Assembly (NCBI GenBank): GCA_964413905.1
Contig: CAYPUG010000001.1
Coordinates: forward strand, 6,962 to 70,961
Reading direction: 5' to 3'
DNA: 64,000 nt
DNA from: an uncultured Anaerolineae bacterium
Lineage (GTDB): Bacteria; Chloroflexota; Anaerolineae; JAADDB01
Of the stretch, positions 6,173-60,499 are shown in pieces. The notes below the pieces were generated by a model. That model searched no databases, had not been told where the DNA came from, and saw only the letters and a list, made by a program, of their open reading frames with translations. Within the stretch, counting starts at the first letter, position 1. Each line of letters opens with the position of its first letter. Both the position numbers and the translations under genes were made by a program.

Positions 6173-6700
6173 TCAACCACCACGAATGTCCACTTCAACG
6201 CGCAGGAGCATATCTTCCAGATGGGTGTAAGTGGGCAGATGCGCTTTCTCAAGAATGTCCAAGATGCGAAGATTATCCGGATGGATGTAGGCGTAAAGCC
6301 GCGTGATGCCCAAGCGTCGGGCTCGGGCCACCAGTTCCAACAGCAGTTGAGTCCCGATGCCCCGACACTGATAATCATCCCGCACCACGACCGCCGCCTC
6401 CGCCAGGGGGCCATGATCCTCCCGCACACAGCGGGCACTTCCCACGATCTCATCCTTCACCAGAGCCACCAGGGCCACTTCCCGGTTCGGCATGACCTCC
6501 ACCGTCTCCCCGGCTCGCTCTAACAGGGACCTTCCTTCCACGTTGGGGAGAAACGTGTGGAACCGACGATAGCGGGTTTCGGGAGAGAGGCGCAGGAGAA
6601 AGTCCACCATGCGCTGAGCATCGTCGGGACGGACATCCCGAATGAGTACTTCTTGCCCCTCACGCGTCCAAAACCGCTTGACGTTCTCCTGCGCATCCAT
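6173..6700 (-). CDS. GNAT family N-acetyltransferase. Start is at MDAQENV; the longer upstream ORF extension overlaps the next gene and is rejected.
   Basis: GNAT motif A, QCRGIGTQLL. Confidence 0.7.
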   Translation of the reverse strand: MDAQENVKRFWTREGQEVLIRDVRPDDAQRMVDFLLRLSPETRYRRFHTFLPNVEGRSLLERAGETVEVMPNREVALVALVKDEIVGSARCVREDHGPLAEAAVVVRDDYQCRGIGTQLLLELVARARRLGITRLYAYIHPDNLRILDILEKAHLPTYTHLEDMLLRVEVDIRGG

Positions 6701-6704
6701 GGGG

Positions 6705-7481: not shown

Positions 7482-7504
7482 GGGATCACCTCCGAAAGGG
7501 TTTG

Positions 7505-7610
7505 ACCTGATGGACGGACTCATCATGTTCTATGTCCCTCGGCATATTAAGAACAGAATCAATCCTTCTGCTCGGCCAAGAGACATGCCCAGAGTTTGAT
7601 CCATCCATCA
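7505..7610. repeat. MITE-like element copy F (a hairpin-less variant) in the enoyl-CoA hydratase/queA intergenic region
   Basis: Starts with CTGATGGACGGAC. Internal segments align with copy C (CATGT..CCTCGGC, GGCCAAG, CAGAGTTT). Confidence 0.5.
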
Positions 7611-12660: not shown

Positions 12661-13221
12661 TCAAGTTGAGAGTTTTTCGGACCCACAAACATAAGCCATG
12701 CCGCAACGAGCACAACGTCGTGGGTCGTGATGGGAACGAGGCATCGTGTCCGCGTAAAGGGCCAACTGCATCTCTGTCAGCGTATCCAAAAGGGCCGTGC
12801 GCAATTCATCGGTGTACGGCACGCGCACGGTAGTATCACGATAGCGGATATACCCGTACGGAGGCCGTTGGCCATGGACCTCCTCGACCAACAGGCAGTA
12901 CGCGGCCAATTGAAGCATATGGCCCCAATAGGGACGCCCTTCCTTGGGTAGGTTGGCGGATTTGATCTCCACCGGAATAAGCCCGTCCTCGGTTTCTACC
13001 AAGTAATCCGGCTTTCCTACCAGACGCCATCGAGTGCTCACCAGCGCTTTTTCAGGCGGACGCCCCTCGTCCACGTCTTCGTAGACCACTTCGCCTTTAG
13101 GCATCCCGGTTGTCCGCCGTACCTGCCGTCCTCGATTCCACAAGACATACGCGATGCCGATGAGCAAAAAGCCCAGGAAGAGCGTGATGATGAGTGCGAT
13201 GAGTATGGGCATGATGTCCAA
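12661..13221 (-). CDS. C-terminal part of a Cas4-like RecB-family PD-(D/E)XK Fe-S nuclease with an N-terminal TM helix. TTG start, in frame with the upstream ORF after a TGA.
   Basis: Motif II D (GKPDYLV), motif III EIK, QxxxY (QLAAY) and a C-terminal Cx2Cx5C (CARCGMAYVC). Confidence 0.6.
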   Translation of the reverse strand: MDIMPILIALIITLFLGFLLIGIAYVLWNRGRQVRRTTGMPKGEVVYEDVDEGRPPEKALVSTRWRLVGKPDYLVETEDGLIPVEIKSANLPKEGRPYWGHMLQLAAYCLLVEEVHGQRPPYGYIRYRDTTVRVPYTDELRTALLDTLTEMQLALYADTMPRSHHDPRRCARCGMAYVCGSEKLST

Positions 13222-13680: not shown

Positions 13681-14310
13681 TCAATCGGCCTCGTCCGTTT
13701 TTCGACCTAACGCGCGGATAAGCCGATCATGCTGCAATGTGAGCGTTAAATCCCCTCTCGTGCGTTCCAGCACACCGCGCAGCACATCCACCTGCCGACG
13801 CAATCCACCGGTGATGGCGTCGGGATAATCAACCAGGATCAGCACGTCGTAGACGTCCTCCATGTAGGATAACAACAATTCGGCCCGTTCCAATTCCTGC
13901 CGACGCATCAGATCTAAAATGTGTCGACGCAACTCGGTGGCTGCCTCGGCCAACCCACCCAGGTACACGTGGTCGGGCACGTTCATACTTTCCGGGGTAG
14001 GCAGAGGGGCGCCCCTGACAAACGCCAAGAGAGTCTCGGCCTCTACCCACTCCTTCAACGCGTCCCCGGTATATCCCGTGAAGTAGAGGTCAGGGTGTTC
14101 CTCGAGGGGCTGCACCAATGCCTGAGCCTGACGTCGCGCGTCTTCCAGAAGGCGTTGAGCCTCCTCGAATTGATGACGGTGAACCGCTCGCGTGATCAGT
14201 CCGCACGTGCGAATCAACGTCCTGGATCGTTGCAGGGTCTCATCTCGAACGCGGTTCTTTGTTTCCAAGCGCCCGAGAATGCGCTCAATGGCTTCCTGTA
14301 ATCCATCCAC
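13681..14310 (-). CDS. Translin-family protein (all-alpha, nucleic-acid-binding), GTG start
   Basis: Translin hallmark motifs: YLGGLAEAATELRRHIL (compare YLLGVADLTGELMR) and the C-terminal LRRQVDVLRGVLE block. Confidence 0.6.
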   Translation of the reverse strand: MDGLQEAIERILGRLETKNRVRDETLQRSRTLIRTCGLITRAVHRHQFEEAQRLLEDARRQAQALVQPLEEHPDLYFTGYTGDALKEWVEAETLLAFVRGAPLPTPESMNVPDHVYLGGLAEAATELRRHILDLMRRQELERAELLLSYMEDVYDVLILVDYPDAITGGLRRQVDVLRGVLERTRGDLTLTLQHDRLIRALGRKTDEAD

Positions 14311-19640: not shown

Positions 19641-22016
19641 ATGTGGAAGAAGAGCGTATGTCTTATCATTCTCTTGTGGGTTTTGACCGCGTGCCACTCA
19701 ACGGGCACACAGCCTTTAGCATCCCCCACATCTTTAACATCCCCTCTCCCCTCGCGACCGGCCCCCATTTCCCCATCCCCGCGCCTCTCCTACACCGAAC
19801 CGCCCGGCACGGCCGTGGCTCACCTTCCTTTGATGAGCCACCACAGCGCGGCCACGGCCACCCTGGAGTCCTCCCCTACGCTTCCCACGCCCACGAAACA
19901 TGCCCCCTCGCCAGCTCCCACCCATACCCCAACACCGCTCTTCTCGCGACGAACCCATATTCCTCTGGTATTCGGGAATCCTCCCCATCACGAAGAGGAG
20001 CCCCTAGTAGTGACAGGTCATCCCTTCGCGCTCATTGTGGACGCGTCGGCCTTCACTGCCCATCCCTGGGACGATCACGGGATATCCCGCTGGACAGCAC
20101 AACAATCGGTCATTCCGCGCGTGCTCCGGGACAGCCTGGCCCATGCCCGAATTGCCGTACAGCGATTGGGGGGAGAGGCCACAACCTGTGAAGGGAACAC
20201 CCAAACACTCATTACCATGCACCCCCTGCCCACCATCGACTGGACACAGATATGGGGGGGGCTCCAACCCACCGGAACCGTCCCTTTGGCCGAAGCCCTC
20301 TTGCAGGCCGCAAACGCCTTTCCGGCAGGAGTCCAACGGCCTATCTTGCTCATTTCTGCTGGAGAGGAGATATGTGGAGAAGATCCCTGCAATGCGGCTC
20401 GCGTGTTGGAACGCTCCGACGCAGATGTCACCGTGCACGTTGTGGACATCGGTGACGAGAACGAAGGACAATCCGTTTTACGTTGTATTGCCGAGGTCAC
20501 AGGCGGCACATACGCGCACGCAACCGGCCCCGATGACTTGGCGAGCGCTTTGCGTACGGCCATCCACCACGCGTTGGGGGGCCAACTCCGTGTGGAGGTG
20601 GTGGGTGTGAACGGACGTCCCCTCTTTCCTGTCGTCGTGGTGGGGCGAGGCGACGAAATCATCCGCACTTTTGACGCGTGGACCGATGCGGACCTGGCAG
20701 AAGGGACGTATACGGTGACGGTGGGCACTCCGTTACCCGGCATCTTCGAAAACGTGGTCATTCACCCAGGACGGCGGACCAAATTGCACATTCCGCTGGG
20801 GGAACTCCACGTGCGCCTGGTAGACACGCAACAGCGCCCCATTGCTGCCGAAATCAGCCTCTCGACGCCCCCCTTGGGGACGTTCTTTGGCAGTGAAGGG
20901 GAAAACATTATTGTGCCCCTGCCCACAGGATATTACACAGTCAGCGCATCCTTGGAAACGTCGCCGCCCCTAGCCTTCGCGCGCCATGTGCCCGTAGTGG
21001 TGGGTTCGGTGACCGAACGCACGGTACGGGTGCCGGTAGCGCGACTTCGGGTGGAACTCATCCACCGTGGCCAACCCGGCAGCGGGTTCATCACTCTATC
21101 CCGATGGGAAAACCCGGATGTCCAGATCGCGGGGGGATGGACAAACGGGGAGATGACGTTCCTGGTCCCCCAGGGATGGTATCAACTGGACATCGGTCAA
21201 TACGCGGAGCCAACCGACGCCCACGTTCTGATCCAACAACGCGTGGATGATCCCGTACACACGCCGGACATTCACTACATTCACCACGTAGACACGGGAA
21301 CCCTCCGAGTCCTGGACACCGCGTCCGACGGCGCATCGGTTTCCGGGTGGGTGCGGGTATATCCCGCGCGCCGGACTTCCCCCATCCTAGCCGAAGGCCC
21401 CATCCTCACCTCCTTCACCCTGCCTACCGGCATGTACGACGTTCAAGTTGTTGAGGAAAACGGGCGTTCTCTTTGGGCATGGGATATCGTGCTCCAACCC
21501 CAACAGCAGGTGGATCTGACCGTGCTACGGCCCCAAGCACGGGTGTGGATTCAAGCCACTACCCCGTGGGGAGAACCGCGGGTCGCCCACACGGTCCTTT
21601 ACCGGGAACCCGACCACACCCCCACGCTGGACGTGCACATCCCATGGCGGGCCGTCCTTCCCCCCGGCACGTACCAAGCGCAACTGGACGAATACAGTGC
21701 GGTCCCTCATACTACACTCTCCGAACCGTTCACCGTCCAAGACGGAGACACATACACACTGACGGGATCCCTCCCGCTGGCGTCACTCACCTTGGTCCCC
21801 ACCGACGTGGACGAGGTAGAAGTCACCATCTACGCCCAAGCCGATCCAACCACTCCCCTGGGAGGAGTACGCTCTGGGCTTCCCCACCTGCTTCTACCTG
21901 AGGGACATTATGCCTTCCACCTAAAAGATGTGGATAATCCGGAACGCTACGTGTGGGTGAGGGATGTTCGTCTGGCCGTAGGTGAACACCGGGAGGTTAT
22001 CGTTCACTTCCCCTGA
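19641..22016 (+). CDS. Lipoprotein with a Pro/Ser/Thr-rich linker, a von Willebrand factor A domain and repeated Ig-like/carboxypeptidase-regulatory-like beta-sandwich domains
   Basis: Lipobox LTAC. The VWA fold (ALIVDAS ... ILLISAGEE ... TVHVVDIGDE) is called from overall composition; the MIDAS DxSxS motif was not confirmed. Confidence 0.6.
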   Translation: MWKKSVCLIILLWVLTACHSTGTQPLASPTSLTSPLPSRPAPISPSPRLSYTEPPGTAVAHLPLMSHHSAATATLESSPTLPTPTKHAPSPAPTHTPTPLFSRRTHIPLVFGNPPHHEEEPLVVTGHPFALIVDASAFTAHPWDDHGISRWTAQQSVIPRVLRDSLAHARIAVQRLGGEATTCEGNTQTLITMHPLPTIDWTQIWGGLQPTGTVPLAEALLQAANAFPAGVQRPILLISAGEEICGEDPCNAARVLERSDADVTVHVVDIGDENEGQSVLRCIAEVTGGTYAHATGPDDLASALRTAIHHALGGQLRVEVVGVNGRPLFPVVVVGRGDEIIRTFDAWTDADLAEGTYTVTVGTPLPGIFENVVIHPGRRTKLHIPLGELHVRLVDTQQRPIAAEISLSTPPLGTFFGSEGENIIVPLPTGYYTVSASLETSPPLAFARHVPVVVGSVTERTVRVPVARLRVELIHRGQPGSGFITLSRWENPDVQIAGGWTNGEMTFLVPQGWYQLDIGQYAEPTDAHVLIQQRVDDPVHTPDIHYIHHVDTGTLRVLDTASDGASVSGWVRVYPARRTSPILAEGPILTSFTLPTGMYDVQVVEENGRSLWAWDIVLQPQQQVDLTVLRPQARVWIQATTPWGEPRVAHTVLYREPDHTPTLDVHIPWRAVLPPGTYQAQLDEYSAVPHTTLSEPFTVQDGDTYTLTGSLPLASLTLVPTDVDEVEVTIYAQADPTTPLGGVRSGLPHLLLPEGHYAFHLKDVDNPERYVWVRDVRLAVGEHREVIVHFP

Positions 22017-28619: not shown

Positions 28620-29234
28620 TCATCCCTTTTTCGCCGTTTTCTCCGTCCCCGGACGTTCCCCACCATGTCGCGCACGGGTGTTCACAAAACGCATGGCCGG
28701 TTCAATGCCCTGAGTGACCCATATTTCGATCGCGTCCGCGGCCTCCTCACGCACCACCCGCATCGCCTCCTCTTCCTCATCGGTGAACGGGTGCAAGACG
28801 AAGTCCGCGGGATCCATACGACCCGGCGGTCGCCCGATGCCCACGCGCAAACGCGGGAAATCGGACGTTCCCAAGTGCTGGATGATGGAACGCATCCCTT
28901 TGTGCCCGCCATCCCCGCCCTTGGGACGCATCCGCAATACACCAAACGCCAGATCAAGGTCGTCATACACTACCAAGATATCTGTCAAAGGTACCTTGTA
29001 GAACCGCACAATGGGAGCTACGGATTTTCCGCTCAAGTTCATGTACGTTTGCGGTTTGACCAACAACACCTCCCCTTCACCCATGCGCACTTTCACGGCC
29101 AACGCGTCGAACTTGTGCGGTGCGAACATGACCCCATGCCGCCGGGCGAGAATGTCCAAGATTTGAAAACCGACATTGTGTCGCGTGCGCTCATACGCCC
29201 GTCCGGGATTGCCCAAACCGAACACGATCTTCAT
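28620..29234 (-). CDS. pth: Peptidyl-tRNA hydrolase. True start is MKIVFGLGNPG; the 354-aa ORF-track extension is rejected.
   Basis: Pth signature GLGNPG ... HNVGF. The upstream gene ends 2 bp before this start. Confidence 0.85.
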   Translation of the reverse strand: MKIVFGLGNPGRAYERTRHNVGFQILDILARRHGVMFAPHKFDALAVKVRMGEGEVLLVKPQTYMNLSGKSVAPIVRFYKVPLTDILVVYDDLDLAFGVLRMRPKGGDGGHKGMRSIIQHLGTSDFPRLRVGIGRPPGRMDPADFVLHPFTDEEEEAMRVVREEAADAIEIWVTQGIEPAMRFVNTRARHGGERPGTEKTAKKG

Positions 29235-29236
29235 GG

Positions 29237-29986
29237 CTATGGTCTCACCCGTACCCATATCCAAAGGATAATACGTTTCAGCACTTCGTATCCGATCCAC
29301 ACCAAATACGCCCACAACGCGTATCGGGCACCGCGCAAAGCAGCCTTCCGAATCCGCTGACTGTTGAAAATCTGCCCAAATTGGCTGAAAATACCCCGCC
29401 CGGTTCCCTGATGTTGACCGGCCACTACCGTCGCCGTAGGTGTAGGCGAAGGGATAGGGGTAGGCGTAGGTATTTCGGGCAGGACCACCACGGCCGGTGT
29501 CGGGGTGGGTGCGGGGGTCGGAGTAAAGCGCGGTGTCGGGGTAACCGTCGGCGTGGGTGTGGGCGTAGGCCTGGTGTTTGCCACGTCCACACGCACAATG
29601 GGCGATTCGATGTAGTTGCCGTCGATTTTGACCACGCGGAGTTTCAGCGCGTAAGGACCATCCGGCAGGGGGCGCGTGTCCCACAAGCCTAACAGACCGT
29701 TGGGTTGTTGGTTGTAATGCGCTTCACCGATGAAAATCCACCCCTGATCCCCAGAAGGCGGTGGCCAGGGCGCATAATACAACTCGTACCTTTGGAATTG
29801 GGGATGAACGGCGACGCCGGAAATGCGCACTTCTCCGCGCACCACGTCACCGTTTTTGGGTATGGTAATCAACGCCTCTGCGCCTTGAGCGTGCACACCC
29901 GTACCGATAATTCCCCACGCTATGAACAAAGATACGAGCAAGATGGCCGCGAGCGACATCCATCCTCGTCGTGAATACATGTACAT
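29237..29986 (-). CDS. Secreted protein: signal peptide, a beta-sandwich domain, a Pro/Thr-rich linker and a C-terminal hydrophobic anchor
   Basis: Signal peptide LAAILLVSLFIAWGIIGTGVHA. (PT)n linker. GGAGAGG Shine-Dalgarno. Confidence 0.6.
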   Translation of the reverse strand: MYMYSRRGWMSLAAILLVSLFIAWGIIGTGVHAQGAEALITIPKNGDVVRGEVRISGVAVHPQFQRYELYYAPWPPPSGDQGWIFIGEAHYNQQPNGLLGLWDTRPLPDGPYALKLRVVKIDGNYIESPIVRVDVANTRPTPTPTPTVTPTPRFTPTPAPTPTPAVVVLPEIPTPTPIPSPTPTATVVAGQHQGTGRGIFSQFGQIFNSQRIRKAALRGARYALWAYLVWIGYEVLKRIILWIWVRVRP

Positions 29987-30017: not shown

Positions 30018-31148
30018 TCATACTTCTTCATCAAAGAGCACTTCTGCTTTGATATCTTCTTCCTCTTCCAAGTTACCGCCCAACGCGCCGGCTACAACGC
30101 CAACAGATGCCATAAAGGCTGAATATCGTTCCAAGGACAGGGCGTGTGCGGTCGGCAAACCGGCCCACGCCGCGAACACATCTTTGGGTAAGACATAAGA
30201 AATCGTCAAGGAGACAACGAAGATAATAGCCCACAAAAATGTCATGCCCAAGAGTAAGGTGCCAAAAAGCACGATTTGTGTTCGGGCAATCTGCTCCCGT
30301 AAATGAACTTCACGCGTGATTTGGCCCATGTTCTGACCGTAGTACATGAGAAAAGTTGCCAAAAGTGTCGCACCTACCGGACCGGCCAGGATGAGGGAGA
30401 AAGGCAAATGTGCACCGATCTCCCACGCTTCCGCGGTCATCAACAAGAACACCGTGGACACCGCAGCCGCGGCCGTCAGGCGTCCCAAGTAAACGGGCAT
30501 CTCCCACGGCGCGTATCGCCAGATATCCAACAAAATTCCTCCCGGGTCGGTGAAGAAAGTGCGCACGTAAAAGGCCAACCGACCCCAATGAGGCCGCTGT
30601 TCCTCCAAGCGTGCGTCGGCGATAAGGTGCAGATGATGGTTAATGGCCTCGATGACCTCTTCTGGAAACGGTTCAATCTGCAACAGCGTTGGATCCTCTA
30701 TCGGCTGGGAGGGGCCGGTGAGGGTATGCTTTACGTCCCACAGGTGAGATAACATATGGAGCACTAAGCCCCCCAGACGTTCAGGCAACACATCCTTCGC
30801 CCCTAAGCGCGCGGTGGAAACCACCGCGACTTCCAGGGCGGAGGAGGGAATCCCCATCGTAGAGATCCGGTGCCGAGGGTTCAATTCGTTGGGAACCACC
30901 ACAATCGCGTAATCCCAGCGACGGAGGATCTTCTCCTCTGCCCCGATTTCCAACAAAGGCAGGGGATCCAATGCCCCCACGGGAACGTATACCCGCCGCT
31001 CTACAAAGGGCATCTCCCATTCAAAATCGGGGAACTGCTCCTGAAGAAGGGTCAACACCTCATCACGGGCTAAAGTATACGCGGCCAACATTTCCTCGTT
31101 ACGAAGGTCCGCAGCCAGCACCCAGCCCACGCTGACCACCGAACTCAT
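30018..31148 (-). CDS. Hypothetical membrane protein with an N-terminal soluble domain and four C-terminal TM helices
   Basis: ORF and hydropathy only. The 4-bp overlap with the hisA stop suggests coupling. Confidence 0.5.
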
Positions 31149-33122: not shown

Positions 33123-34718
33123 ATGAACGAGGCGGATTTCTGGACCCTCATCCGGGAGCGACGGTCCATTCGCCGTTACCAGGATCGACCGGTCCCCCGC
33201 TCCCTAATTAACGCGCTCCTCGAGGCCGCGCGTTGGGCTCCCTCCACCCACAATCGACAACCCTGGCGGTTTATTATTATTAAACCGGGGCCCCAACGAG
33301 AACACATGGCACAACAAATGGCCCAACGCATGATCGCGGACTTGGTGGCCGATGGGTGGCCTCGGGAAGAAGCAGAAGCACGCGGCCAACGGTCCATCCG
33401 ACGTCTGACCACCGCACCGGTCCTCATCCTTCTCGTCCTGAACACCGAGGAATTGGACCATTACGAGGATGAACGTCGAGCGCGGGCAGGATATTTACTG
33501 GGGGTTCAAAGCGTGGCCGTAGCCGCCCAGAACATCCTCTTGGCTGCTCACCACTATGGACTGGGCGCGTGCTGGATATGTGCCCCTCTGTTTGCTCAAG
33601 ATATCCTGCGAGAGGTGTTAGACCTGCCTGAGACATGGGACCCCCAAGCGTTCATCACCGTTGGCTATCCGGCCGAACACCCTCTGCGTAGCCGTCGTCC
33701 GCTGGAGGAGATCACCATGACGCTACCGAAACCGTCGGAACACACCGAACCCACACCCGAGCCCGTTTCTCCTCCCCCTTCTCATCCTCTCGTTGTTGCA
33801 CTGGCCGGGGGCGTGGGAGGCGCCAAAGGCGCGTTGGGCTTGTATCGCATCCTCCCTCCCGATGCCCTAACCGTCATTGTAAACACGGGTGACGACTTTG
33901 AACACATCGGTCTTCCCATTTCCCCCGATTTGGACACGGTGATGTACACCCTGGCCGGCATCTACCACCGCGAACAGGGGTGGGGCATCGCAGAAGACAC
34001 CTTCCACGCGCTGGACATGTTAGGCCGTTACGGTGCACCCACCTGGTTCCGACTAGGAGACAAAGACCTGGCTACACACATTGTCCGCCGGTACCTCCAA
34101 GATCAAGGATGGCCCCTCAGCCGCATCACCGACCACCTCCGACGCGCTTTGGGTATACAAGCTCGTATCCTGCCGATGAGCGACGATCCCGTGCGCACCC
34201 TTATTGTCACCCCGGAGGGCACCTTACCCTTCCAAGAATACTTTGTGCAACGACGACAAGCCCCTCCTGTAAAAGCCATCCGTTTTCAACACGTGGACCA
34301 AGCCCGCCCTGCGCCCGGCGTCCTCCAAGCATTGCAGGACGCGCAAACAATTGTCATCGCACCGTCCAACCCCTACCTAAGCGTGGATCCTATCCTCAAA
34401 CTCCCAGGTGTGCGTGATCTCCTGCGCGCACGGCGGAAACGCGTGGTTGCCATCACTCCCATTGTGGGCGGAAATGCCGTCAAAGGCCCGTTGGCTAAAC
34501 TCATGCGGGAATTCGGTCATGAACCCTCGGCCCTGGTGGTCGCGCGTTATTACCAGGACATCCTAGGAGCGTTTGTCTTGGACGAACAAGATGCTCACCT
34601 CGCGGCGGACATCCGCGCCCTGGGCATTCGCGTCGCCATCACGAATACGTTAATGACATCCGATGAGGATAAAGAGCGCGTCGCGCGGGTGGCGTTGGCT
34701 CTCATAGAGAAGGAGTAA
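33123..34718 (+). CDS. cofD: Fusion protein: an N-terminal nitroreductase-fold domain (FbiB C-terminal-like) fused to 2-phospho-L-lactate/EPPG transferase CofD (FbiA)
   Basis: Residues 1-200 carry the nitroreductase fold ([15 protein letters not shown]). Residues 215-531 are CofD/YvcK-like ([13 protein letters not shown] ... [14 protein letters not shown]). Confidence 0.75.
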
Positions 34719-34722
34719 GCCC

Positions 34723-35439
34723 ATGAGTGTACCCGACTTGGCCATCTTCATTCCGCTGAAACCCGTTCACCGGGCCAAGCGCCGCCTCGCGTCCATCCTG
34801 CCTTTGGGTCCCCGTCGGGCTCTGACCCAACACCTGTTCACCCACGTGGTACGGGCCGCCCGAAACGCCCACATCCCCGCAGATGTATGGGTCATTGCCG
34901 GCGATCGGCGCGTAGCACGATGGGCTCGCCAAGAAGGCGTGGGCGCGTTGATGGAATCCGACGCCTGGCGCTTGAGTGTAGCAGACTTTGAGCAACCCCT
35001 TACGCCGGCTCGCGACACACGTTGGGACGTCCCCCTCAATCGGGCATTGAACGACGCTCTTGCCTGGGCAGACCATCAAGGGTACCAGGCCACCCTCATC
35101 CTGCCCGCGGACCTGCCACACGTGTTACCACAGGATGTGGAACGCTTATGGCATCTCTCCCGCACGTTCGAGCCCCCCATCGTGGTCATTGCCCCGGACC
35201 GACGAGGCGAGGGCACCAATGCCTTACTCCTGCGTCCGCCCCGCGTGATTTCCCCGGCTTTCGGACAGGGAAGTTTTACCCGTCATCTCATCCGGGCTAT
35301 GCAAGCCGGAGCGTCCGTGTACATCTACACATCCCCCGGTGTCCTCCACGATCTCGACACCCCGGAAGACTGGCAACATTACATGGTCGACGTCCCACAG
35401 CGTGACCACGACTTACAGGGAGAGAGACGTTCACCATGA
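34723..35439 (+). CDS. cofC: 2-phospho-L-lactate/phosphoenolpyruvate guanylyltransferase (CofC/FbiD)
   Basis: MobA-like nucleotidyltransferase fold typical of CofC (AIFIPLKPVHRAKRRLA). Sits immediately after cofD. Confidence 0.7.
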   Translation: MSVPDLAIFIPLKPVHRAKRRLASILPLGPRRALTQHLFTHVVRAARNAHIPADVWVIAGDRRVARWARQEGVGALMESDAWRLSVADFEQPLTPARDTRWDVPLNRALNDALAWADHQGYQATLILPADLPHVLPQDVERLWHLSRTFEPPIVVIAPDRRGEGTNALLLRPPRVISPAFGQGSFTRHLIRAMQAGASVYIYTSPGVLHDLDTPEDWQHYMVDVPQRDHDLQGERRSP

Positions 35440-38400
35440 GCACGCAGACCAAGCCCATCTATATAGAACCGCCAAGCTGGCGACGTGTTATTCTCACTTT
35501 TATCGTGCTCACTCTGGCCTTGGCCCCTATTCCCTTCCTCCTGAACCACATTCAACGCCAAACCCGGGGCGTGGTGTACGGTGTGCCCCCGCGTATGCCT
35601 CACACCCACGTCCAACCCTACGCGGTCAACGTGGACCTCCGCCCCCTTTCGCCTCCTGAGCGAGATCGAGCCCTCACCCGCGTTGTCCAAGGGGGATTTG
35701 GCTGGGTACGTATACGCTTTCCCTGGTTTGACATTGAGACCGAAGCGGGAAAGTATCACTGGACTCCCTACGACCAAATCGTCCAGGCCGTACACGAGCA
35801 AGGCCTAGGAATCATCGCACTCATTGACGGCACACCGTCCTGGCTGCGTCCGCCCGGGGAAAAGGATAATCCTGTCGTACCCCCCGCGGATCTAGACCTG
35901 TTTGCCCGCTTTGCCGCGACCTTGGCCCGACGCTACGGTGACCGTATCGATTACTATCAAGTGTGGGATCAACCCAACGTCACACCTTTCTGGGGCAACA
36001 AACGGGTAGACCCGGCTGGATACGTACAAATGTTGCGCCGGGTAGGACAAGCCATTCGCGAAGCGGACGAGAGCGCCTACATCCTTAGCGCCGGTCTAGC
36101 CCCTACTACCCTCCACAAGCCGTACAACATGAGCGATATAGATTATTTGGACGCGATGTATCGGGCCGGCGCAAAAGGAACATTCGATATCCTCGGGGCC
36201 AAAGCCTACGACCTTTACCAGAACAGCCCTTGGTCCCGGGACTACTCCCCCGACCACTTAGGCATCACTCGCTTGGTTCTCCTGCGAGAGGTTATGATCC
36301 GCCATCACGATGGGAACACCCCCATTTGGGTGGTCGGATGGGGACGTCACGCAACCCCACCCCATTGGAAAGGACGCCCCAGCATTTGGGGAACGGTAAG
36401 TGAAGAAGAACAAGCTCAATACGTCAAGGACGTGTACCGACGCAAACGTCAAGAATGGCCCTGGCTTGGGCTGCTTACCTGGGATCAATTTTATCCGAAC
36501 GTGCCGCCGGATGACCCGCTATGGGGATTTGCCCTGCTACGCCCCAACTGGCAACCCCGCCCGGTGTACCGTGCGTTTCAGGAACTGACCGCCCCCCCTC
36601 CTCTTATCGGTGTAGGACGCTATGGGCCTAACACGTGGATTTGGCGGTATCCCGATGCTCAATTTCGCCACACCATCCGCGCGGAGGGTAATCGAATCAG
36701 CATCATTGCGCGGGCATTGGTCGCGGTTGAAGCGAGTTTAGACGGCGAAGAGCGGTCCATCCTGCTGGACGCAAACCGCGAACACGTGTTGGGAGACCAC
36801 CTCCCACTTCAACCACACACGTTGGTCTTCCGCTTCGACCCGGCGGGAGTCACCACCCTGCTCATCGGGCGCAACCGTCCACTGGGCCCTTATATCGTGT
36901 TAGGCATACTCGCCATGCTTGCAGTGGGGGCGCTCATCCGGCTGGGACTTTGGGCTACATGGGCTCCCACAGAACCGGTCGTGTATCCCGGGCTTATCGC
37001 CATCTTGACCGTTTTCTACATGATGGCACCGACCTTGTGGACCAGTCTGATCACCTTAATGCTTTTGGCCGGGCTGATCTTCTACCGACCGGATTGGGGA
37101 TTAGTCGCCGCGTTGGGTGTTACACCCTTTGTGGCCGTGCCAAAGCGCCTGGGACACGTACAATTCAGCCTGGTGGAAACGTACATCATCCTGGTCACCC
37201 TGGCGTGGACCCTACGGCTGGCGGGAGAGATGATCATTATCGTCGTCGAGGCTCCAAACGTTCCTTGGCGACTTCGGCTTTACCGGGCGACCCGCGTGCT
37301 GGTCAACCGCGCGGGGCCGCGCAACGCGTTGGATGTGATGGTCCTCCTGTTCGTTCCCTTGGGCGTTTGGGCTGCGTGGGGAGCACGCTATCAAGATGTA
37401 GCCTGGCGAGAGATACGTTGGGTTGTGCTTGAACCCGTTCTCTTCTACGGCATCCTCCGCTCGCGCTGGCGCGACCACATCCATATTGCCCGAAAACACA
37501 TCCCCCAGCGAGCGCGATCCTGGCTATACCGTCACCGTGTGCTGATGACCACGGAGAGTGACATTCCCCAATTCGGCGCGTACCTGGTCAACGGCTTTCT
37601 GTGGGGCAGTAGCCTCGCCGTGCTGATAGGCATCGCGCTGCTCTTTTATCACCCAGAAGGCGCGTACGCGGAAGGGGTGTGGCGATTACGCGGCCTATAC
37701 GGATCACCCAACAACCTAGCGCTCATATTGGGCCGGGCGTTCGCCATCGCGGCCGCTTTGGCGCTGTTCCTGCCCTTTGACCAACCCTCACGTGGTCGTG
37801 GTCCATCGGTGGAAGAAAGAACATGGCCACGCGTGTTACCGGGGCTGCGCCCACGGCAGGGATACGCGGTCCTGGCCGGGTGGATCTTCCTAGGAATAAT
37901 GGGCACGTTCTCACGGGGGGCCCTCCTCGTAGGTCTTCCTGTCACCCTCCTCTTTCTGGGATGGATGCATGGCAAACGGGGAAGGATGTACGCGCTGGTC
38001 GCCATCCTTCTCCTCGCAAGCTTACAAATTCCCCTCTTGACAACCCCGCGCTTCCGCACACTGGTCACGGGCACAGGAACTCCTGCGCTACGCGTGGAAC
38101 TCTGGAGATCGTCCTTGCAAATGATCAAAGATCACTGGTGGAGAGGGGTCGGCCCGGACAATTTTCTATACTACTTCCGCACCCAATATCTCCCGCGACG
38201 AAATTTTCCTGAACCCAACCTCTCCCATCCTCACAACATTCTCCTCCACTTCTGGCTGGAATTCGGCTTTGGAGGAATCCTCTGGCTCGGTGCGACGTTG
38301 TGGCTGTTTTTCCACAAAGTGCAAGAAACCCTTCGCGTCCTGCCAACGCCATCCATGTCCCGCGCACTGGTCCTCGCGGCCGCGGGTGGCATCCTCTACG

Positions 38401-38507
38401 GCATATCCCACGGCCTTGTAGATCAATCCTTTCTCTTACCGGACCTGATGCTCCTGTTCGTTTGGCACCTCGGTATGGTCGCTTCGATTGAAGAACGGCG
38501 TTTGTAA
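35436..38507 (+). CDS. Large membrane protein: an N-terminal TM helix, a GH clan-A-like TIM-barrel domain (with a DQP variant of the NEP motif), a polytopic region and a C-terminal O-antigen ligase/polymerase (Wzy_C) domain
   Basis: The TIM-barrel domain is paralogous to 53386-54825 and to the C-terminus of 54935-58081. The Wzy_C region contains GSRGALLVGLPVTLLFLGW. Start overlaps the cofC stop (ATGA). Confidence 0.65.
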   Translation: MSTQTKPIYIEPPSWRRVILTFIVLTLALAPIPFLLNHIQRQTRGVVYGVPPRMPHTHVQPYAVNVDLRPLSPPERDRALTRVVQGGFGWVRIRFPWFDIETEAGKYHWTPYDQIVQAVHEQGLGIIALIDGTPSWLRPPGEKDNPVVPPADLDLFARFAATLARRYGDRIDYYQVWDQPNVTPFWGNKRVDPAGYVQMLRRVGQAIREADESAYILSAGLAPTTLHKPYNMSDIDYLDAMYRAGAKGTFDILGAKAYDLYQNSPWSRDYSPDHLGITRLVLLREVMIRHHDGNTPIWVVGWGRHATPPHWKGRPSIWGTVSEEEQAQYVKDVYRRKRQEWPWLGLLTWDQFYPNVPPDDPLWGFALLRPNWQPRPVYRAFQELTAPPPLIGVGRYGPNTWIWRYPDAQFRHTIRAEGNRISIIARALVAVEASLDGEERSILLDANREHVLGDHLPLQPHTLVFRFDPAGVTTLLIGRNRPLGPYIVLGILAMLAVGALIRLGLWATWAPTEPVVYPGLIAILTVFYMMAPTLWTSLITLMLLAGLIFYRPDWGLVAALGVTPFVAVPKRLGHVQFSLVETYIILVTLAWTLRLAGEMIIIVVEAPNVPWRLRLYRATRVLVNRAGPRNALDVMVLLFVPLGVWAAWGARYQDVAWREIRWVVLEPVLFYGILRSRWRDHIHIARKHIPQRARSWLYRHRVLMTTESDIPQFGAYLVNGFLWGSSLAVLIGIALLFYHPEGAYAEGVWRLRGLYGSPNNLALILGRAFAIAAALALFLPFDQPSRGRGPSVEERTWPRVLPGLRPRQGYAVLAGWIFLGIMGTFSRGALLVGLPVTLLFLGWMHGKRGRMYALVAILLLASLQIPLLTTPRFRTLVTGTGTPALRVELWRSSLQMIKDHWWRGVGPDNFLYYFRTQYLPRRNFPEPNLSHPHNILLHFWLEFGFGGILWLGATLWLFFHKVQETLRVLPTPSMSRALVLAAAGGILYGISHGLVDQSFLLPDLMLLFVWHLGMVASIEERRL

Positions 38508-38541: not shown

Positions 38542-38569
38542 ATTGACAGAACCCTCCGAACTTCTATAA
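38542..38569 (+). promoter_or_regulatory. Consensus sigma-70-type promoter, TTGACA-N16-TATAAT, upstream of sufR
   Basis: TTGACA at 38542-38547 and TATAAT at 38564-38569, about 120 nt upstream of the sufR GTG. Confidence 0.6.
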
Positions 38570-38692
38570 TGGAACAAAAATCAGAGAGGAGCGGAGGGGG
38601 CTCATCGCATGGGCCTTGGCTGAAACAGGCCGGGGAAATCGGTCGCTACCATGAGGTACAAGGTAATACGTATTGGAACAGGAGCATGAGAC

Positions 38693-39322
38693 GTGACATT
38701 AGAAAAGTGGAGAGACACGGCCGCGGGGCAAGTCCTGGAAGTGCTTCTCCGGGAAGGGCCGAGGACGGTGAAGGAATTGCAGACATCTTTGGGACTCAGT
38801 GGGACGGCTATTCGCGCTCATTTATCGCGCTTGTTGGCCGAAGGTCTTATTGAAGTTCACACTGAACGGCATGGCGTGGGACGGCCCATTAAAGTGTACA
38901 CGTTGACCCCTCAGGCCCGAGCCGTCATGGGCCGCCACACCGACGCGTTTATCACCGCCTTGCTGGAAGAACTCTACCAGATGGAAGGAGAGGAAAAAGT
39001 TCGGCATCTTCTCCAGCGTGTATCACACCGCTTGGCGACAAAGTACCGAGACCAAATTCGAGGACGCACCATCGAAGAACGGGTGCGAACTTTGACCCAC
39101 CTACTCAACGAACAGGGCATCGTTGCGGACATGGTCGTCAACGGAGACCGCATTGAAATTCACGAATACACTTGTCCGTACCACGAACTTGCACACCAAC
39201 ACCGAAGCGTATGCGAGATGGAGCGCAGTATTATGTCCACCATGCTTGGCGTTCCGGTCTCCATGCGTCAATGCATGATGGAAGAAGATAAGGAATGTGT
39301 GTTTGAAATCCAAATATCTTAA
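38693..39322 (+). CDS. sufR: SufR-like Fe-S-responsive transcriptional regulator (winged HTH plus a C-terminal Cys cluster), GTG start
   Basis: HTH (VKELQTSLGLSGTAIRAHLSRLLAEGLI) and a C-terminal C..C..C..C. Lies directly upstream of sufCBDSU. Confidence 0.6.
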   Translation: MTLEKWRDTAAGQVLEVLLREGPRTVKELQTSLGLSGTAIRAHLSRLLAEGLIEVHTERHGVGRPIKVYTLTPQARAVMGRHTDAFITALLEELYQMEGEEKVRHLLQRVSHRLATKYRDQIRGRTIEERVRTLTHLLNEQGIVADMVVNGDRIEIHEYTCPYHELAHQHRSVCEMERSIMSTMLGVPVSMRQCMMEEDKECVFEIQIS

Positions 39323-46571: not shown

Positions 46572-47789
46572 ATGAACCGCAAAGTCATTTGGCCAATCGT
46601 CACTCTCAGCATAATGATAATCATCCTCAGCGCATGTGGTGGCACGAAAAAGACCCCCACCGCAACGTCTGTACCGGTTACACCGGAAACACACGCCATG
46701 GCCACAACTCCACCCCCCCCGACACCTGTGCCCCCATCACCCACCAAAGCCAAACCCACCGTGGCCCCTGTGGCGACCAAAGTGGAAAAACCGGCTCCCA
46801 CCCCCATCCCCACAGAAACATCTCCGCAGGCCGAAGAGGAACAAGAGGAGACGCTCACCTTCACAACGCCTGACGAACTTCAAGACATCCAATCCTATCG
46901 GATGCGCATCCTGTATCGGACGACGTATAAAGGTGAAACCATCGATGTACTGAAATACCTCATCGAAGCCGTTAAGAATCCACCGGCCAAACATATGATT
47001 ATGGAGTACATCGAAGAACCCCCCGCGGCCAACCAGAAGCCCATGCCACAAAAACTGGAAATTGTCCAGAAGGAAAACAAAATTTGGTTCAAGATGGGGG
47101 ACACCTGGATCTCCGGACAGGCCCCAGAACAGCAGAATAACATTCAGTACGGAGAGGAAATCCGCTTTTACACATCAACGGAACTGGGCACCGGTTGGAA
47201 AAAAGTAGGCACCGAAGAGATCAACGGATTCAAAACCGTCCATTACCGTAATGAAAACGTGCCTTATGAAGCAGAGGTCTCTCCCTTCTTCCCCTGGTAC
47301 AACTGGTTTGCTTCGCCGGGAGAACAACCCAAAGTGACCGTGAAACGCATCACGGCCGATGTCTACATCTCCGATAAAAATTTTGCAGTAAAAGAAATCA
47401 TTCACTGGGATGTGGATTTGGAACACGGAGGCAAAACAGAACATGCCCAAACCGAACTCATCACCGAAATCCTGGAGTTGAACCCGGACATCACCATCAA
47501 CATTCCGGAAGAAAAAGCCGGGCAGAATGCCCCCATTCCTTTACCTGGAGAACCCACATCGGTCATGGCGACTCAAGGCATGTGGATCTACGCCATCCCG
47601 GGGACCACCGTTGAAAACGTAGTCGCGTACTTCAACACCGAACTTCCCAAACAAGGGTACAACGTCCAATCGAATCCTATGATGCCGGGCATGCTCACCA
47701 TGACCACACCGGAGGGCAAAACGTACACGGTCACCGTTACCGAAGAAGGCAACAACGTCCACGTCATGATCCAGGGTCAAACCCCGTGA
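46572..47789 (+). CDS. Lipoprotein of unknown function with a Pro/Thr-rich linker
   Basis: Lipobox LSAC. The stop lies 3 bp before rqcH. Confidence 0.6.
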   Translation: MNRKVIWPIVTLSIMIIILSACGGTKKTPTATSVPVTPETHAMATTPPPPTPVPPSPTKAKPTVAPVATKVEKPAPTPIPTETSPQAEEEQEETLTFTTPDELQDIQSYRMRILYRTTYKGETIDVLKYLIEAVKNPPAKHMIMEYIEEPPAANQKPMPQKLEIVQKENKIWFKMGDTWISGQAPEQQNNIQYGEEIRFYTSTELGTGWKKVGTEEINGFKTVHYRNENVPYEAEVSPFFPWYNWFASPGEQPKVTVKRITADVYISDKNFAVKEIIHWDVDLEHGGKTEHAQTELITEILELNPDITINIPEEKAGQNAPIPLPGEPTSVMATQGMWIYAIPGTTVENVVAYFNTELPKQGYNVQSNPMMPGMLTMTTPEGKTYTVTVTEEGNNVHVMIQGQTP

Positions 47790-58944: not shown

Positions 58945-60153
58945 TCACCGGGTCACCCCATAGGATTTCAGGATCTTCTCTCGCTTTTCCGCGCCCTCTT
59001 CGATAACCTGCAACAGCCTCTGGGCCTCACCCAGCTGATGCGAACCGATGTGTTCCTGTAACCGCCAAATCGCATCCAACAACTCACCGTACATGGCCAA
59101 TTGCTTCTGCACGGCTTTGAGCACTTCATCCAACGCATCAATGCGCCGGTTTTGCTCCTGCCACTTATAGTCCCATTCCAGTACTTGTTTCTTCCAACGC
59201 TTCTCCTGTTCACTTTCAAACTCACGCATGGCCCGACGAAGGGCTTCTTCGGCCACGCGTTGCGCTTCCCGGATTTCGTGAACATCCTTGTGCAGGCTCT
59301 CCTTCCACCGTTCAATATCCGCAACCGCCCGAACCGCTTTATCGTACTGGACCTCAAAGCGCTCGAACCGCTTCAGAGCGTCTGCCACCTGGGCTTTCAT
59401 TTCCTCAAAGACCTTTTGCCACTCATGCACCTTCTTCTCCCGATCCACCTCGGCTTGACGCACCTCTTCCAGAAACGCGGACTCCTCACGTCGAATGCTC
59501 TCTACCACCTCACGCACATCTCTAACAATGTTATCCTGACGCTGCAATTTCTCCTCAAGCAGCGGTAACTTTCCTGCAAGAGCTTCTAAGCGCCGAAACA
59601 ATTCCACCGTTTCGCCCTGCAATTGTCCGATACGCTTGTGGTCCTGAGAGCGTTGTTCGCTTAACAAGGTGACCGTGCGCAACGCTTCCTCCGAGCGCCG
59701 GTCGATCTCCACCACCTGCTCCCGCAAGCGCATAACCTGCTCACCTAGGCGCCGATCTTCGGCCTTAAAGCCGTCCAGGATTTCCTCCAATGCGGCAATT
59801 CGTTCCAGTTCCTTGCGCAGTTCCGCGATCTCGCGGCCCCACTTTTCCCGTTCCGCAGCCCGCAGCCGTTCCTGATCCCGCTCTCGCGCCAACCGTTCTT
59901 CCTCGCGACGTTCAATCGTGGCTCGCACGTCCTTGCGCAAGTTCTCCAGTGCCTCCTGCAAGGAAGCATACTCGGCCAGTTGGGAACGGGCAGCCGCAAG
60001 TTCACTTTCCAACTGTTGAATGCGTCGGGCCTGATCCTCAATGATGCCGGCCTGGCTGGTCAGGCGCTGTTCCAGTTTACGCATCTCCTGATCGGTCCGG
60101 CGACGTTGTTGATCCAGCCAAGTGACCATTTGCTCCAATTGCGTCAGGTCCAT
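58945..60153 (-). CDS. Highly charged coiled-coil protein (402 aa, Glu/Arg/Lys/Leu/Gln-rich heptads)
   Basis: AAAGGAGGGGG Shine-Dalgarno before MDLTQLEQ. Coiled-coil character throughout. Confidence 0.6.
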   Translation of the reverse strand: MDLTQLEQMVTWLDQQRRRTDQEMRKLEQRLTSQAGIIEDQARRIQQLESELAAARSQLAEYASLQEALENLRKDVRATIERREEERLARERDQERLRAAEREKWGREIAELRKELERIAALEEILDGFKAEDRRLGEQVMRLREQVVEIDRRSEEALRTVTLLSEQRSQDHKRIGQLQGETVELFRRLEALAGKLPLLEEKLQRQDNIVRDVREVVESIRREESAFLEEVRQAEVDREKKVHEWQKVFEEMKAQVADALKRFERFEVQYDKAVRAVADIERWKESLHKDVHEIREAQRVAEEALRRAMREFESEQEKRWKKQVLEWDYKWQEQNRRIDALDEVLKAVQKQLAMYGELLDAIWRLQEHIGSHQLGEAQRLLQVIEEGAEKREKILKSYGVTR

Positions 60154-60499
60154 AAAAACTGCCCCCTCCTTTGAGTGGTCAACCTGATCGACCGATAGCC
60201 CTCCGCATGTGCACTTTGGCTTAAAAGAGCGATGTCGCAATGCCTTCGTCTACCCGTTGAAGTTCGGCCGGTCAATCAGGCATGTTCTTTTTGGTCTATA
60301 CGTGGGAGATATTTTACCATAAGGCGCAAAGAATCATAATCGAACCGGCCCGCACGCCGGGTTTTCCATATGCACAGGTTTGATGGACCGATAACACATC
60401 ATCCGAGATGGAGGAAATGCGTGAGATTTTTACCACTCTCGGTGGCGTAAATCCCGCTCGTATATCTACTAATGAACACGTATTCGCACGGGGGCAAAC

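Follow-up and report, generated by a model that had tools for sequence, protein, structure and literature searches.

A nitroreductase–CofD fusion protein predicted to act in the late steps of F420 biosynthesis in a Chloroflexota lineage

The window analyzed here, a stretch of 64,000 nucleotides from an uncultured Anaerolineae bacterium, carries a gene in which a nitroreductase-fold (NTR) domain and a complete CofD/FbiA domain are encoded by one uninterrupted ORF of 531 amino acids. We propose, at a probability of about 0.7, that the product is a bifunctional late-step F420 enzyme of the PEP route, best named FbiE–FbiA, whose gene arose when the NTR stop codon was lost. Both activities are likely to reside in the protein, as judged from its sequence. 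The novelty lies in the domain architecture; the enzymes and the pathway are already known, and neither a new reaction nor a new kind of system is involved. The NTR–cofD fusion is a rare yet real rearrangement of an ordinary, widely conserved gene pair.

The fused gene and its surroundings

An earlier note on this DNA had described an NTR domain joined to a complete CofD/FbiA, and both the start and the end of the plus-strand ORF agreed exactly with that description (Table 1). Pfam Nitroreductase (PF00881) matched residues 10–182 over its whole length (profile positions 1–167 of 167; 133.9 bits), and Pfam CofD (PF01933) matched residues 224–496 (164.1 bits). The C-terminal half also matched TIGR01819 (F420_cofD) over profile positions 1–299 of 301, scoring 321.9 bits (cut-off, 257.45). 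The profile matches of the fusion and cofC had E-values from 1e-39 to 1e-96, far beyond chance. The AF2 model of the 531-aa protein (mean pLDDT 90.4) shows two well-folded domains connected by a disordered linker; as a monomer model, it bears on the separate domains and the linker.

Table 1 Features of the fused gene and its downstream neighbors (positions in the window)
Feature	Position	Strand	Basis
Fused NTR–linker–CofD gene	33123..34718	+	ORF call, Pfam/NCBIfam domain matches, fused full-length homologues P0002–P0007, AF2
N-terminal nitroreductase-fold domain, residues 1–193, predicted FMN-dependent dehydro-F420-0 reductase	33123..33701	+	PF00881, TIGR03553, 4xom, Foldseek
Inter-domain linker, residues 194–223 (30 residues), Pro/Glu/Thr-rich	33702..33791	+	AF2 pLDDT, homologue comparison
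Relic start site of cofD within the fused ORF, a possible internal initiation site: GGAGGAG 33704–33710, 6-nt spacer, in-frame ATG 33717–33719 (Met199)	33704..33719	+	Sequence
C-terminal CofD/FbiA domain, residues 224–531, predicted Fo:EPPG/LPPG phospho-transferase	33792..34715	+	TIGR01819, PDB matches, Foldseek
cofC/fbiD, 238 aa, predicted guanylyltransferase making EPPG or LPPG	34723..35439	+	TIGR03552, alignment to 7p97 and 2i5e
1023-aa membrane protein with Wzy_C (O-antigen-ligase-like) domain	35436..38507	+	ORF list, Pfam

Among PDB sequences, the CofD half matched 3c3d (241 bits) and 6uvx (193.6 bits). In the Foldseek comparison, the TM-scores were 0.93–0.95 with 3c3d (rmsd 1.7 Å at TM 0.95) and 0.83–0.85 with 6uvx. 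The catalytic metal ligands of Mycobacterium smegmatis FbiA are D45 and D57 (PMC7253369). These residues align to D257 (in NTGDD) and D269 (in SPDLD) of the fusion protein and are invariant in 50 sequences, as well as throughout alignments A1 and A3. Judged by these matches and residues, the CofD half is complete and should be catalytically competent.

The next gene starts 4 nt past the stop codon of the fusion and has its own GAAGGAG. As the earlier note had proposed, it is cofC/fbiD, scoring 138.1 bits for TIGR03552 (F420_cofC), whose cut-off is 105. When aligned to 7p97 and 2i5e, the protein showed the known substrate and metal residues (PMC8764529, PMC6450877), namely Asp130 of PADLP, Asp210/212 of DxD, GTN at 164–166, and Ser184. 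Gly181 occupies the column in which Ser is diagnostic for 3-PG use (PMC8764529). The start of the following Wzy_C gene overlaps the cofC stop codon by 4 nt, and the two genes are thus probably co-transcribed. The same Wzy_C gene follows cofC in two loci with the fusion (L082 and L083) and in one with separate genes (L086). Pfam and neighborhood analyses found nothing tying the Wzy_C protein to F420. A perfect sigma-70 consensus at 38543–38570 marks the start of the next operon, and a promoter/terminator scan of the NTR–cofD/cofC operon yielded none above chance.

The window was said to lack cofE, cofG, and cofH, and the searches agree. The Pfam scan of 48 of the 51 gene calls (at least 90 aa) detected no F420_ligase, radical-SAM CofG/H, FbiC, Fno, or luciferase-like enzyme. 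The remaining three calls are the fusion and cofC, which were scanned separately, and a 209-aa call (13681–14310) without a match. A tblastn search of the window with 12 probes each for CofE, Fno, LLM, and PPOX enzymes gave no match.

Assignment of the NTR domain

TIGR03553 (FbiB C-terminal domain) was the best NCBIfam model for the NTR domain, with 136–139 bits. The profile check suggested by the earlier note, which named TIGR03553 and CofD, thus gave a mixed outcome: the CofD match lies above its cut-off, and the TIGR03553 match falls below the curated value of 249.55. This miss is uninformative because the cofD-linked NTR of Thermomicrobium roseum (163.4 bits) and a true CofE–NTR protein (P0136; 133.8 bits) also miss the cut-off, as does a CofC–NTR protein (P0129; 142.8 bits). 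The cut-off appears to delimit actinobacterial FbiB, not function. The NfsA and NfsB models scored more than 85 bits worse than TIGR03553 on this domain. The full-length FbiB model NF009810 aligned only over profile positions 259–440 (135 bits versus a cut-off of 304), and the CofE ligase domain (PF01996) was absent from the 531-aa protein in the Pfam scan.

The top PDB sequence match of the NTR domain was 4xom (M. tuberculosis FbiB-C; E 7e-29), and the top folds found by Foldseek with the AF2 model were all FbiB-C chains (4xoo, 4xoq, and 4xom; TM 0.85–0.91). Sequence identity is 44% to the T. roseum NTR (WP_012643075.1; E 6e-48) and roughly 24% to Escherichia coli NfsB, which otherwise served only as the tree root. 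The generic FMN motif of NTR proteins is present (RRSxR at 13–17, plus P40 and S41; predicted FMN binding). These profile, sequence, and fold matches, together with the relatives linked to cofD–cofC, place the domain in the FbiB-C/"FbiE" subfamily, nearer to FbiB-C than to other characterized NTR subfamilies, and uphold the earlier view that it is FbiB-C-like and not NfsB-type.

The docking model of M. tuberculosis FbiB-C has P289, R337, and M372 as pocket residues (PMC6450877). The corresponding residues here are T42 (different), R90 (identical), and L126 (conservative). All 11 fused sequences have Arg in the R337 column, and Leu or Met occupies the M372 column. The T. roseum NTR has P, G, and M in the three columns, and because of its Gly at the R337 column, the docking-pocket residues are weak diagnostics. 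In the NJ tree, an uncharacterized Clostridioides difficile NTR (3gfa) lies inside the broad group, nearer than the M. tuberculosis FbiB-C clade; hence, the FbiE-like subfamily is not cleanly delimited by sequence alone. The NTR-domain NJ trees are unstable at depth (P0008 shifted when one sequence was added), and only shallow groupings were used.

The score below the TIGR03553 cut-off, the difference at two of the three pocket residues, and the position of 3gfa are also what would be expected if the NTR domain were another FMN enzyme (a generic nitro/quinone/flavin reductase or a BluB-like protein). The pathway would then run via 2-phospho-L-lactate (2-PL), and the reductase would be unnecessary. 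Neither the sequences of CofC and CofD nor CofC assays discriminate between PEP and 2-PL (PMC8764529), but no bacterial route to 2-PL is known (PMC6450877). BluB (TIGR02476) was the second model with 91–94 bits, but this is also below its own cut-off of 150 and 45 bits behind TIGR03553. Moreover, this reading hardly explains the recurrent tight linkage or fusion of the NTR subfamily with CofD, CofC, and CofE, and the T. roseum homologue lies within a cofD–cofC cluster. We regard it as quite unlikely. [quoted passage not shown]

Origin and spread of the fusion

The survey of genomes proposed in the earlier note recovered the same fusion in six homologues (P0002–P0007; 59–88% identity), whereas other apparent fusions came from error-prone assemblies. 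The homologues have the same uninterrupted two-domain ORF in NCBI, JGI, ENA, and Logan assemblies. Because these independent assemblies share the ORF while the linker lengths differ, the fusion is not an assembly artifact. That the single ORF stems from a sequencing or assembly indel where NTR and cofD overlap, or is a recent read-through resembling a pseudogene, is extremely improbable. P0002 is identical across the NCBI, JGI, Logan, and ENA assemblies with intact neighbors, seven divergent homologues have one ORF with in-frame linkers of 25–80 aa, the junction is in frame at a Met without frameshifted read-through, and the 51 gene calls of the window appear intact. Such errors may, on the other hand, account for P0008, P0019, P0273, and P0274, which come from assemblies with "contig_" names that are full of split genes. 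They were withdrawn as independent fusions because an indel where NTR and cofD overlap by 4 nt would look like a fusion. A "CofE–PNPOx fusion" (L087) was likewise rejected; its contig is error-prone, and CofE and PNPOx are separate genes in L089 and L090.

On the sequences compared, the robust fusion is confined to one small clade, comprising the window and P0002–P0007. Their NTR domains were monophyletic in 27 of 30 bootstraps (NJ), and the unfused NTRs of L084 and L085 formed the sister group of the P0001–P0007 clade. Of the 80 related reference-genome loci fetched, nearly all labeled Chloroflexota, 53 carry NTR, cofD, and cofC as separate adjoining genes in that order, in many cases overlapping by 4 nt. 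The nearest relatives of the NTR domain are encoded by stand-alone genes right upstream of cofD–cofC in dozens of Chloroflexota genomes, with a 4-nt overlap with cofD. A stand-alone cofE, which is 258 aa in the relatives, was found near NTR–cofD in 36 of the 87 loci clustered, and stand-alone CofE, Fno, and LLM- and PPOX-class F420 enzymes adjoin the NTR–cofD(–cofC) genes in relatives. The contig matches listed from the genome scan were all at most 55% identical to the window protein. Among the best 150 NTR-domain relatives from 1.84 billion representatives, 25 are multi-domain proteins, 10 with a CofE domain and 1 with CofC. All fusion counts are lower bounds, as the junction-spanning protein search missed even the identical P0001.

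The junction retains traces of the separate genes. Stand-alone NTRs terminate at "..LxEIT..stop", which matches exactly the M199 junction point, and the unfused relatives have an ATGA or GTGA overlap or an in-frame stop at this position. The linker, predicted to be disordered (pLDDT 42–47 at residues ~199–222 in AF2), differs in length and sequence among the fused homologues and corresponds to the C-terminal tail of NTR and the N-terminal tail of CofD of the unfused relatives, joined together. The GGAGGAG and ATG motif is kept in L082 (P0002), and the unfused L084 has GGAGGA 9 nt ahead of the cofD ATG. By this comparison, M199 is the old start Met of cofD, with a Shine–Dalgarno-like site also retained, and Met199 is a possible internal initiation site for free CofD. 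In one Chloroflexota lineage, a conserved, translationally coupled NTR–cofD pair became fused when the NTR gene lost its stop codon.

Loss of the stop codon does not by itself imply a benefit. The fusion may be real and have both activities as proposed but have arisen by a near-neutral accident of stop or frame loss, with the domains acting by diffusion and free CofD perhaps made from Met199; we give this nearly an even chance. The overlapping or in-frame stop codons of the unfused relatives exactly at the junction, the ribosome-binding motif and ATG still inside the ORF, and the disordered, variable linker fit such an origin. In the CofD tree, the unfused P0009 and P0010 group with the fused P0006 and P0007. 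Moreover, the domains of FbiC are reported to be independent, without direct substrate transfer (PMC8498797), which advises caution in assuming channeling in the window fusion. Against these points, the fused state is kept down to ~59% identity in P0002–P0007, suggesting that the fusion has been at least tolerated over a long time. FbiA also co-purifies with dehydro-F420-0, which is reported to be less stable than F420 (PMC7253369, PMC8498797, PMC8764529), and proximity of the reductase could therefore help. Tethering may bring a kinetic benefit; the channeling of the unstable intermediate put forward in the earlier note is speculation: given the disordered linker, the intermixing of fused and unfused forms, and the surviving start, near-neutral stop loss fits as well as selection for channeling. 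A stronger version, in which an NTR dimer, a CofD dimer, and CofC assemble compactly and turn PEP, GTP, and Fo into F420-0 without releasing EPPG or dehydro-F420-0, and in which the dehydro-F420 reductase is a "roving" domain attached independently to CofC, CofD, and CofE, is unlikely. If true, the roving reductase would mark the hand-over of dehydro-F420-0 as a step under selection.

Proposed pathway and comparison with known systems

Here, we propose a pathway for the bifunctional FbiE–FbiA protein. CofC/FbiD from the next gene would form EPPG from PEP and GTP. The CofD/FbiA domain would then move the enolpyruvyl-phosphate onto the ribityl hydroxyl of Fo, giving dehydro-F420-0; D257 and D269 probably bind the single divalent metal used in this transfer. 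In the following step, the N-terminal FMN-binding NTR domain would use FMNH2 to reduce the enolpyruvyl methylene, yielding F420-0. A distinct CofE, whose gene would lie in another part of the genome, is expected to add the glutamate tail. The protein itself would have originated when the coupled NTR–cofD pair lost the NTR stop codon, leaving the two old tails as a disordered tether of ~30 residues.

Adjacent pathway genes are often fused. The fusion gives independent "Rosetta-stone" evidence that NTR and CofD work together and thereby supports the route from PEP via dehydro-F420-0 to F420-0. This support extends past Actinobacteria and Thermomicrobia into a large, mostly uncultured part of Chloroflexota. 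Together with FbiB (CofE–NTR) and the CofC–NTR protein, the fusion has the reductase joined to more than one pathway partner. The protein may also be a natural single-polypeptide FbiE–FbiA part for heterologous F420 production, where the build-up of dehydro-F420 is a practical problem.

Compared with CofD of Methanosarcina mazei (3C3D) and FbiA of M. smegmatis (6UVX), the C-terminal half shows full-length homology and keeps the metal-binding Asp pair and the GGVGGAK, NTGDD, and SPDLD motifs, but the window protein has an extra N-terminal region of 223 residues (NTR and linker). FbiC (CofH::CofG) likewise fuses two consecutive enzymes of the F420 pathway that other lineages encode in separate genes, although its enzymes, which are radical SAM proteins, are unrelated to those described here.

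The stand-alone NTR of T. roseum has been reported as a dehydro-F420 reductase (PMC8498797, PMC8764529, reviewing Braga 2020). WP_012643075.1, the candidate for the enzyme assayed, resembles the window NTR in having TIGR03553 as the first and BluB as the second model, in addition to the sequence identity given above. The gene order in T. roseum is cofD–cofC–DMT–NTR (DMT, a transporter), whereas the window clade and the majority of fetched Chloroflexota loci have NTR–cofD–cofC. Unlike this and other stand-alone FbiE proteins, the window NTR no longer ends in a stop codon but continues covalently into CofD.

M. tuberculosis FbiB (CofE::NTR; 4XOM, 4XOO, and 4XOQ) carries an FMN-binding NTR-fold domain of the same type and is the best solved relative in both sequence and fold. 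FbiB likewise joins the dehydro-F420-0 reductase to a second enzyme of the late F420 steps, and its R337 corresponds to R90. The two proteins differ in that the window protein lacks a CofE domain and does not reach the cut-offs of TIGR03553 and NF009810, and the NTR domains share ~35% identity, with P289 replaced by Thr and M372 by Leu. The NTR domain is N-terminal here and C-terminal in FbiB, and its partner here is the preceding enzyme, CofD/FbiA, whereas in FbiB it is the following enzyme, CofE.

Gene content of the window

The earlier note had proposed a fusion of a nitroreductase-fold (NTR) domain to CofD, with CofC encoded next, and both open reading frames were found at exactly the claimed coordinates in the ORF listing. 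Pfam and NCBIfam matches agree with this arrangement. PF00881 (Nitroreductase) covers residues 10-182 and PF01933 (CofD) residues 224-496 of the fused protein, which scored 321.9 bits against TIGR01819 (F420_cofD; cut-off 257.45), and the downstream ORF matched PF01983 (CofC) and TIGR03552 (F420_cofC; 138.1 bits, cut-off 105). Over its whole length the CofD half can be aligned with M. mazei CofD (241 bits) and with FbiA of M. smegmatis (193.6 bits). FbiA coordinates its metal through D45 and D57 (PMC7253369), and the equivalent residues here, D257 and D269, are invariant across 50 aligned sequences. In CofC the GTN motif and the acidic residues are preserved, as is Ser184, which binds the carboxylate, and Gly181 occupies the position at which a Ser would indicate use of 3-phosphoglycerate (PMC8764529). 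CofC is thus a PEP/2-PL-type enzyme, the two substrates not being separable by sequence.

Coordinates of features in the window
Feature	Position	Strand	Remarks
NTR-CofD fused gene	33123-34718	+	531-aa ORF
Relic cofD start	ATG 33717-33719 (M199); GGAGGAG 33704-33710	+	In frame inside fused ORF
cofC	34723-35439	+	238-aa ORF
Membrane protein	35436-38507	+	1023 aa; Wzy_C (O-antigen-ligase-like) at C-terminus; residues ~1-800 without Pfam match
Sigma-70 consensus promoter	38543-38570	+	TTGACA, 16 nt, TATAAT; 12/12 matches
Peptidyl-tRNA hydrolase gene call	28620-29684	-	353 aa; Pth domain at residues 152-333 only
ORF without Pfam match (E <= 1e-5)	19641-22016	+	791 aa
ORF without Pfam match (E <= 1e-5)	46572-47789	+	405 aa
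ORF without Pfam match (E <= 1e-5)	58945-60240	-	430 aa
ORF without Pfam match (E <= 1e-5)	30018-31148	-	375 aa
ORF without Pfam match (E <= 1e-5)	6642-7505	+	287 aa
Small Cas4/PD-(D/E)XK-like nuclease	12661-13221	-	PF01930 + PF12705, E ~1e-8

Outside these two genes, which lie between Mfd, Pth, HisA, and Sua5 upstream and a Wzy_C-type membrane protein, an HTH regulator, and the SUF operon downstream, the window is ordinary chromosomal context. The claimed absence of cofE, cofG, and cofH was borne out: Pfam scans detected none of these, fbiC, or other F420 genes among the remaining gene calls, and CofE, Fno, LLM, and PPOX probes had no tblastn match in the window. The start (ATG) of the Wzy_C gene and the stop of cofC share 4 nt, a translational coupling of a cell-envelope gene to cofC in the window's clade, and the same gene also follows cofC in L082 and L083 (loci of the fused homologue P0002) and in the unfused locus L086. 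The sigma-70 promoter lies ~120 nt 5' of an HTH + MetOD1 regulator gene (38693-39322), which stands before a sufCBDSU cluster. The Pth call has either a ~150-aa N-terminal extension or a start placed too far 5'. The 375-aa protein overlaps the hisA stop and has a membrane-protein-like C-terminus, and no CRISPR or cas genes are found near the Cas4-like nuclease gene.

The neighboring ORFs were clustered for 87 sequences (86 related loci and the window). A 258-aa stand-alone CofE (TIGR01916, 292 bits) without an NTR domain occurs near NTR-cofD-cofC in 36, accompanied by an LLM-class F420 oxidoreductase (46/87), Fno (31/87), and a PPOX-class F420 enzyme (19/87); the usual order is Fno, CofE, PPOX, NTR, CofD, CofC, LLM. 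For the window's clade, cofE was not found in the 64-kb window or in the L082 and L083 flanks. An SsnA-like amidohydrolase (NF005540, 524 bits) adjoins the F420 cluster in 34/87 loci, often with xanthine-dehydrogenase-family (MoCoBD/Fer2/FAD_binding_5) and XdhC genes, which suggests a recurrent link of F420 genes with purine or N-heterocycle catabolism in Chloroflexota.

Identity of the N-terminal domain

The best model for the N-terminal 200 residues is TIGR03553, the FbiB C-terminal domain (139.2 bits), followed by BluB (94.3 bits) and classical nitroreductases (<=52.6 bits). The best PDB match by sequence is the Mycobacterium tuberculosis (Mtb) FbiB C-terminal domain (4xom, E 7e-29; 3gfa, 7e-23). 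When the AF2 model (mean pLDDT 90.4) was compared with the PDB by Foldseek, CofD/FbiA matches to the C-terminal half came first, and ranks 11-20 were taken exclusively by chains of FbiB-C (E about 1e-15, TM 0.85-0.91), with all remaining nitroreductases lower in the list. The FbiB-C likeness claimed earlier thus stands on model, sequence, and fold, with a TIGR03553 score below the cut-off of 249.55. This shortfall does not separate the domain from functional or architecture-validated relatives, since a stand-alone protein from Thermomicrobium roseum (163.4 bits), the true CofE-NTR protein P0136 (133.8 bits), and a CofC-NTR protein (142.8 bits) also fall below it. The T. roseum protein (WP_012643075.1, "nitroreductase family protein"; 44% identity to the window domain, E 6e-48) is encoded on the megaplasmid after cofD, cofC, and a DMT transporter, and reduction of dehydro-F420 is reported for the stand-alone NTR of this species (Braga 2020, reviewed in PMC8498797 and PMC8764529).

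An exhaustive HMMER search with the NTR domain alone against 1.84 billion representatives gave 103 matches at E <= 1e-30. Among the 25 multi-domain proteins in the best 150 relatives, 10 carry CofE (the FbiB architecture), one carries CofC, and only the P0003 cluster carries CofD. Mtb P289, R337, and M372, named by a docking model (PMC6450877), align with T42, R90, and L126, a weak residue-level test. The R337 column is Arg in 11/11 fused sequences and 27/38 cofD-adjacent stand-alone NTRs, and Gly in T. roseum; the M372 column carries Met in the majority of relatives and Leu in the subclade of the window, and P289 is Ala in most relatives. Because NJ trees place the uncharacterized C. difficile NTR 3gfa within the broad group, the functional family is not sharply delimited by sequence alone, and most weight is placed on synteny and fusion evidence.

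Distribution and origin of the fusion

At least seven further clusters (P0002-P0008; 51-88% identical, 533-585 aa) share the NTR-CofD architecture, and their alignment has conserved domains connected by a linker of ~25 to 80 residues; such protein-search counts are lower bounds, as a word-indexed query of residues 100-330 missed the 100%-identical window protein and P0002-P0008. P0002 is identical in NCBI, JGI, Logan, and ENA assemblies, and its loci L082 and L083 have the gene order of the window (Sua5, fusion, cofC, Wzy_C, HTH, SUF), with intact neighbors. Both domains are also present in P0008, P0019, P0273, and P0274. These were set aside because a 1-base indel at the NTR/cofD overlap would fake a fusion and their contigs ("contig_..." names) are rich in split genes: L081 has a broken luciferase, L087 a frameshift within the NTR, and L089 and L090 fragments of cofE, cofD, and amidohydrolase genes. 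The window and P0002-P0007 form the robust fused clade, whose NTR domains are monophyletic in 27/30 NJ bootstraps.

A scan of genome contigs listed at least 80 loci, analyzed as stop-to-stop ORFs. None of 80 listed reference loci has the fusion, and 53, almost all labeled Chloroflexota (Anaerolineales, Caldilineaceae, and others), have a separate NTR ORF directly 5' of cofD, usually with cofC next. In L001-L007 the two ORFs share a frame with one stop between them. The closest unfused relatives by CofD, P0009 and P0012 (domain 71-72% identical), carry an NTR gene of 203-208 aa that shares 4 nt with cofD, and in unfused L086 cofC and the Wzy_C gene follow downstream as they do in the window. 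The stand-alone NTR end, L-x-E-I-T-(0-3 aa)-stop, coincides with the cofD start (ATGA in L084, GTGA in L086; in L001, an in-frame spacer of 15 nt). The window has LEEIT followed immediately by M199-TLPKP, so the linker is the former NTR tail joined to the former CofD N-terminal tail. The relic ATG and GGAGGAG are likewise kept in L082, and unfused L084 has GGAGGA 9 nt 5' of its cofD ATG; internal initiation yielding free CofD is possible given this surviving in-frame start. Unfused P0009 and P0010 cluster with fused P0006 and P0007 in the CofD-domain NJ tree, which probably reflects two or more fusion or fission events in this small group, or else a tree lacking resolution.

Five proteobacterial loci (L021, L025, L041, L050, L051) have CofD ORFs of ~540-595 aa (stop-to-stop), in which CofD takes up only the final ~300 residues and no NTR precedes it; these may be open frame in high-GC DNA or another N-terminal extension.

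Proposed function and comparison with known systems

The most likely function, at roughly 70%, is that of a bifunctional FbiE-FbiA enzyme. CofC would supply EPPG, the CofD domain would convert Fo and EPPG to dehydro-F420-0, and the tethered NTR domain would reduce this product with FMNH2. Disorder is predicted for the linker (pLDDT 42-47, residues ~199-222), and the pTM of 0.62 is consistent with two domains lacking a fixed mutual orientation. Channeling of dehydro-F420-0 would be plausible in principle because FbiA is purified together with its own product and dehydro-F420 is reported to have lower stability (PMC7253369, PMC8498797). A near-neutral fusion would explain the tether equally well, given the easy mutational path, the retained internal cofD start, and the precedent of FbiC, whose domains are independent (PMC8498797).

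A 393-aa CofC::NTR fusion from outside the window (P0129/P0272; TIGR03552, 157.8 bits, residues 5-195; TIGR03553, 142.8 bits, residues 203-381) was found in ENA, NCBI, and Logan contigs. It may be an assembly artefact; if genuine, it makes the guanylyltransferase another fusion partner of this reductase subfamily.

The NTR-CofD architecture is not described in the 2021 F420 review, Bashiri 2019, Grinter 2020, or Hasan 2022, is absent from a domain co-occurrence study, and carries no name in the source databases. Its parts, CofD/FbiA, the FbiB-C/FbiE reductase, and CofC/FbiD, are already known, as is the principle of joining the reductase to a pathway neighbor, which FbiB exemplifies. In FbiB the partner is CofE, whereas here it is the upstream enzyme CofD, and the domain order differs.
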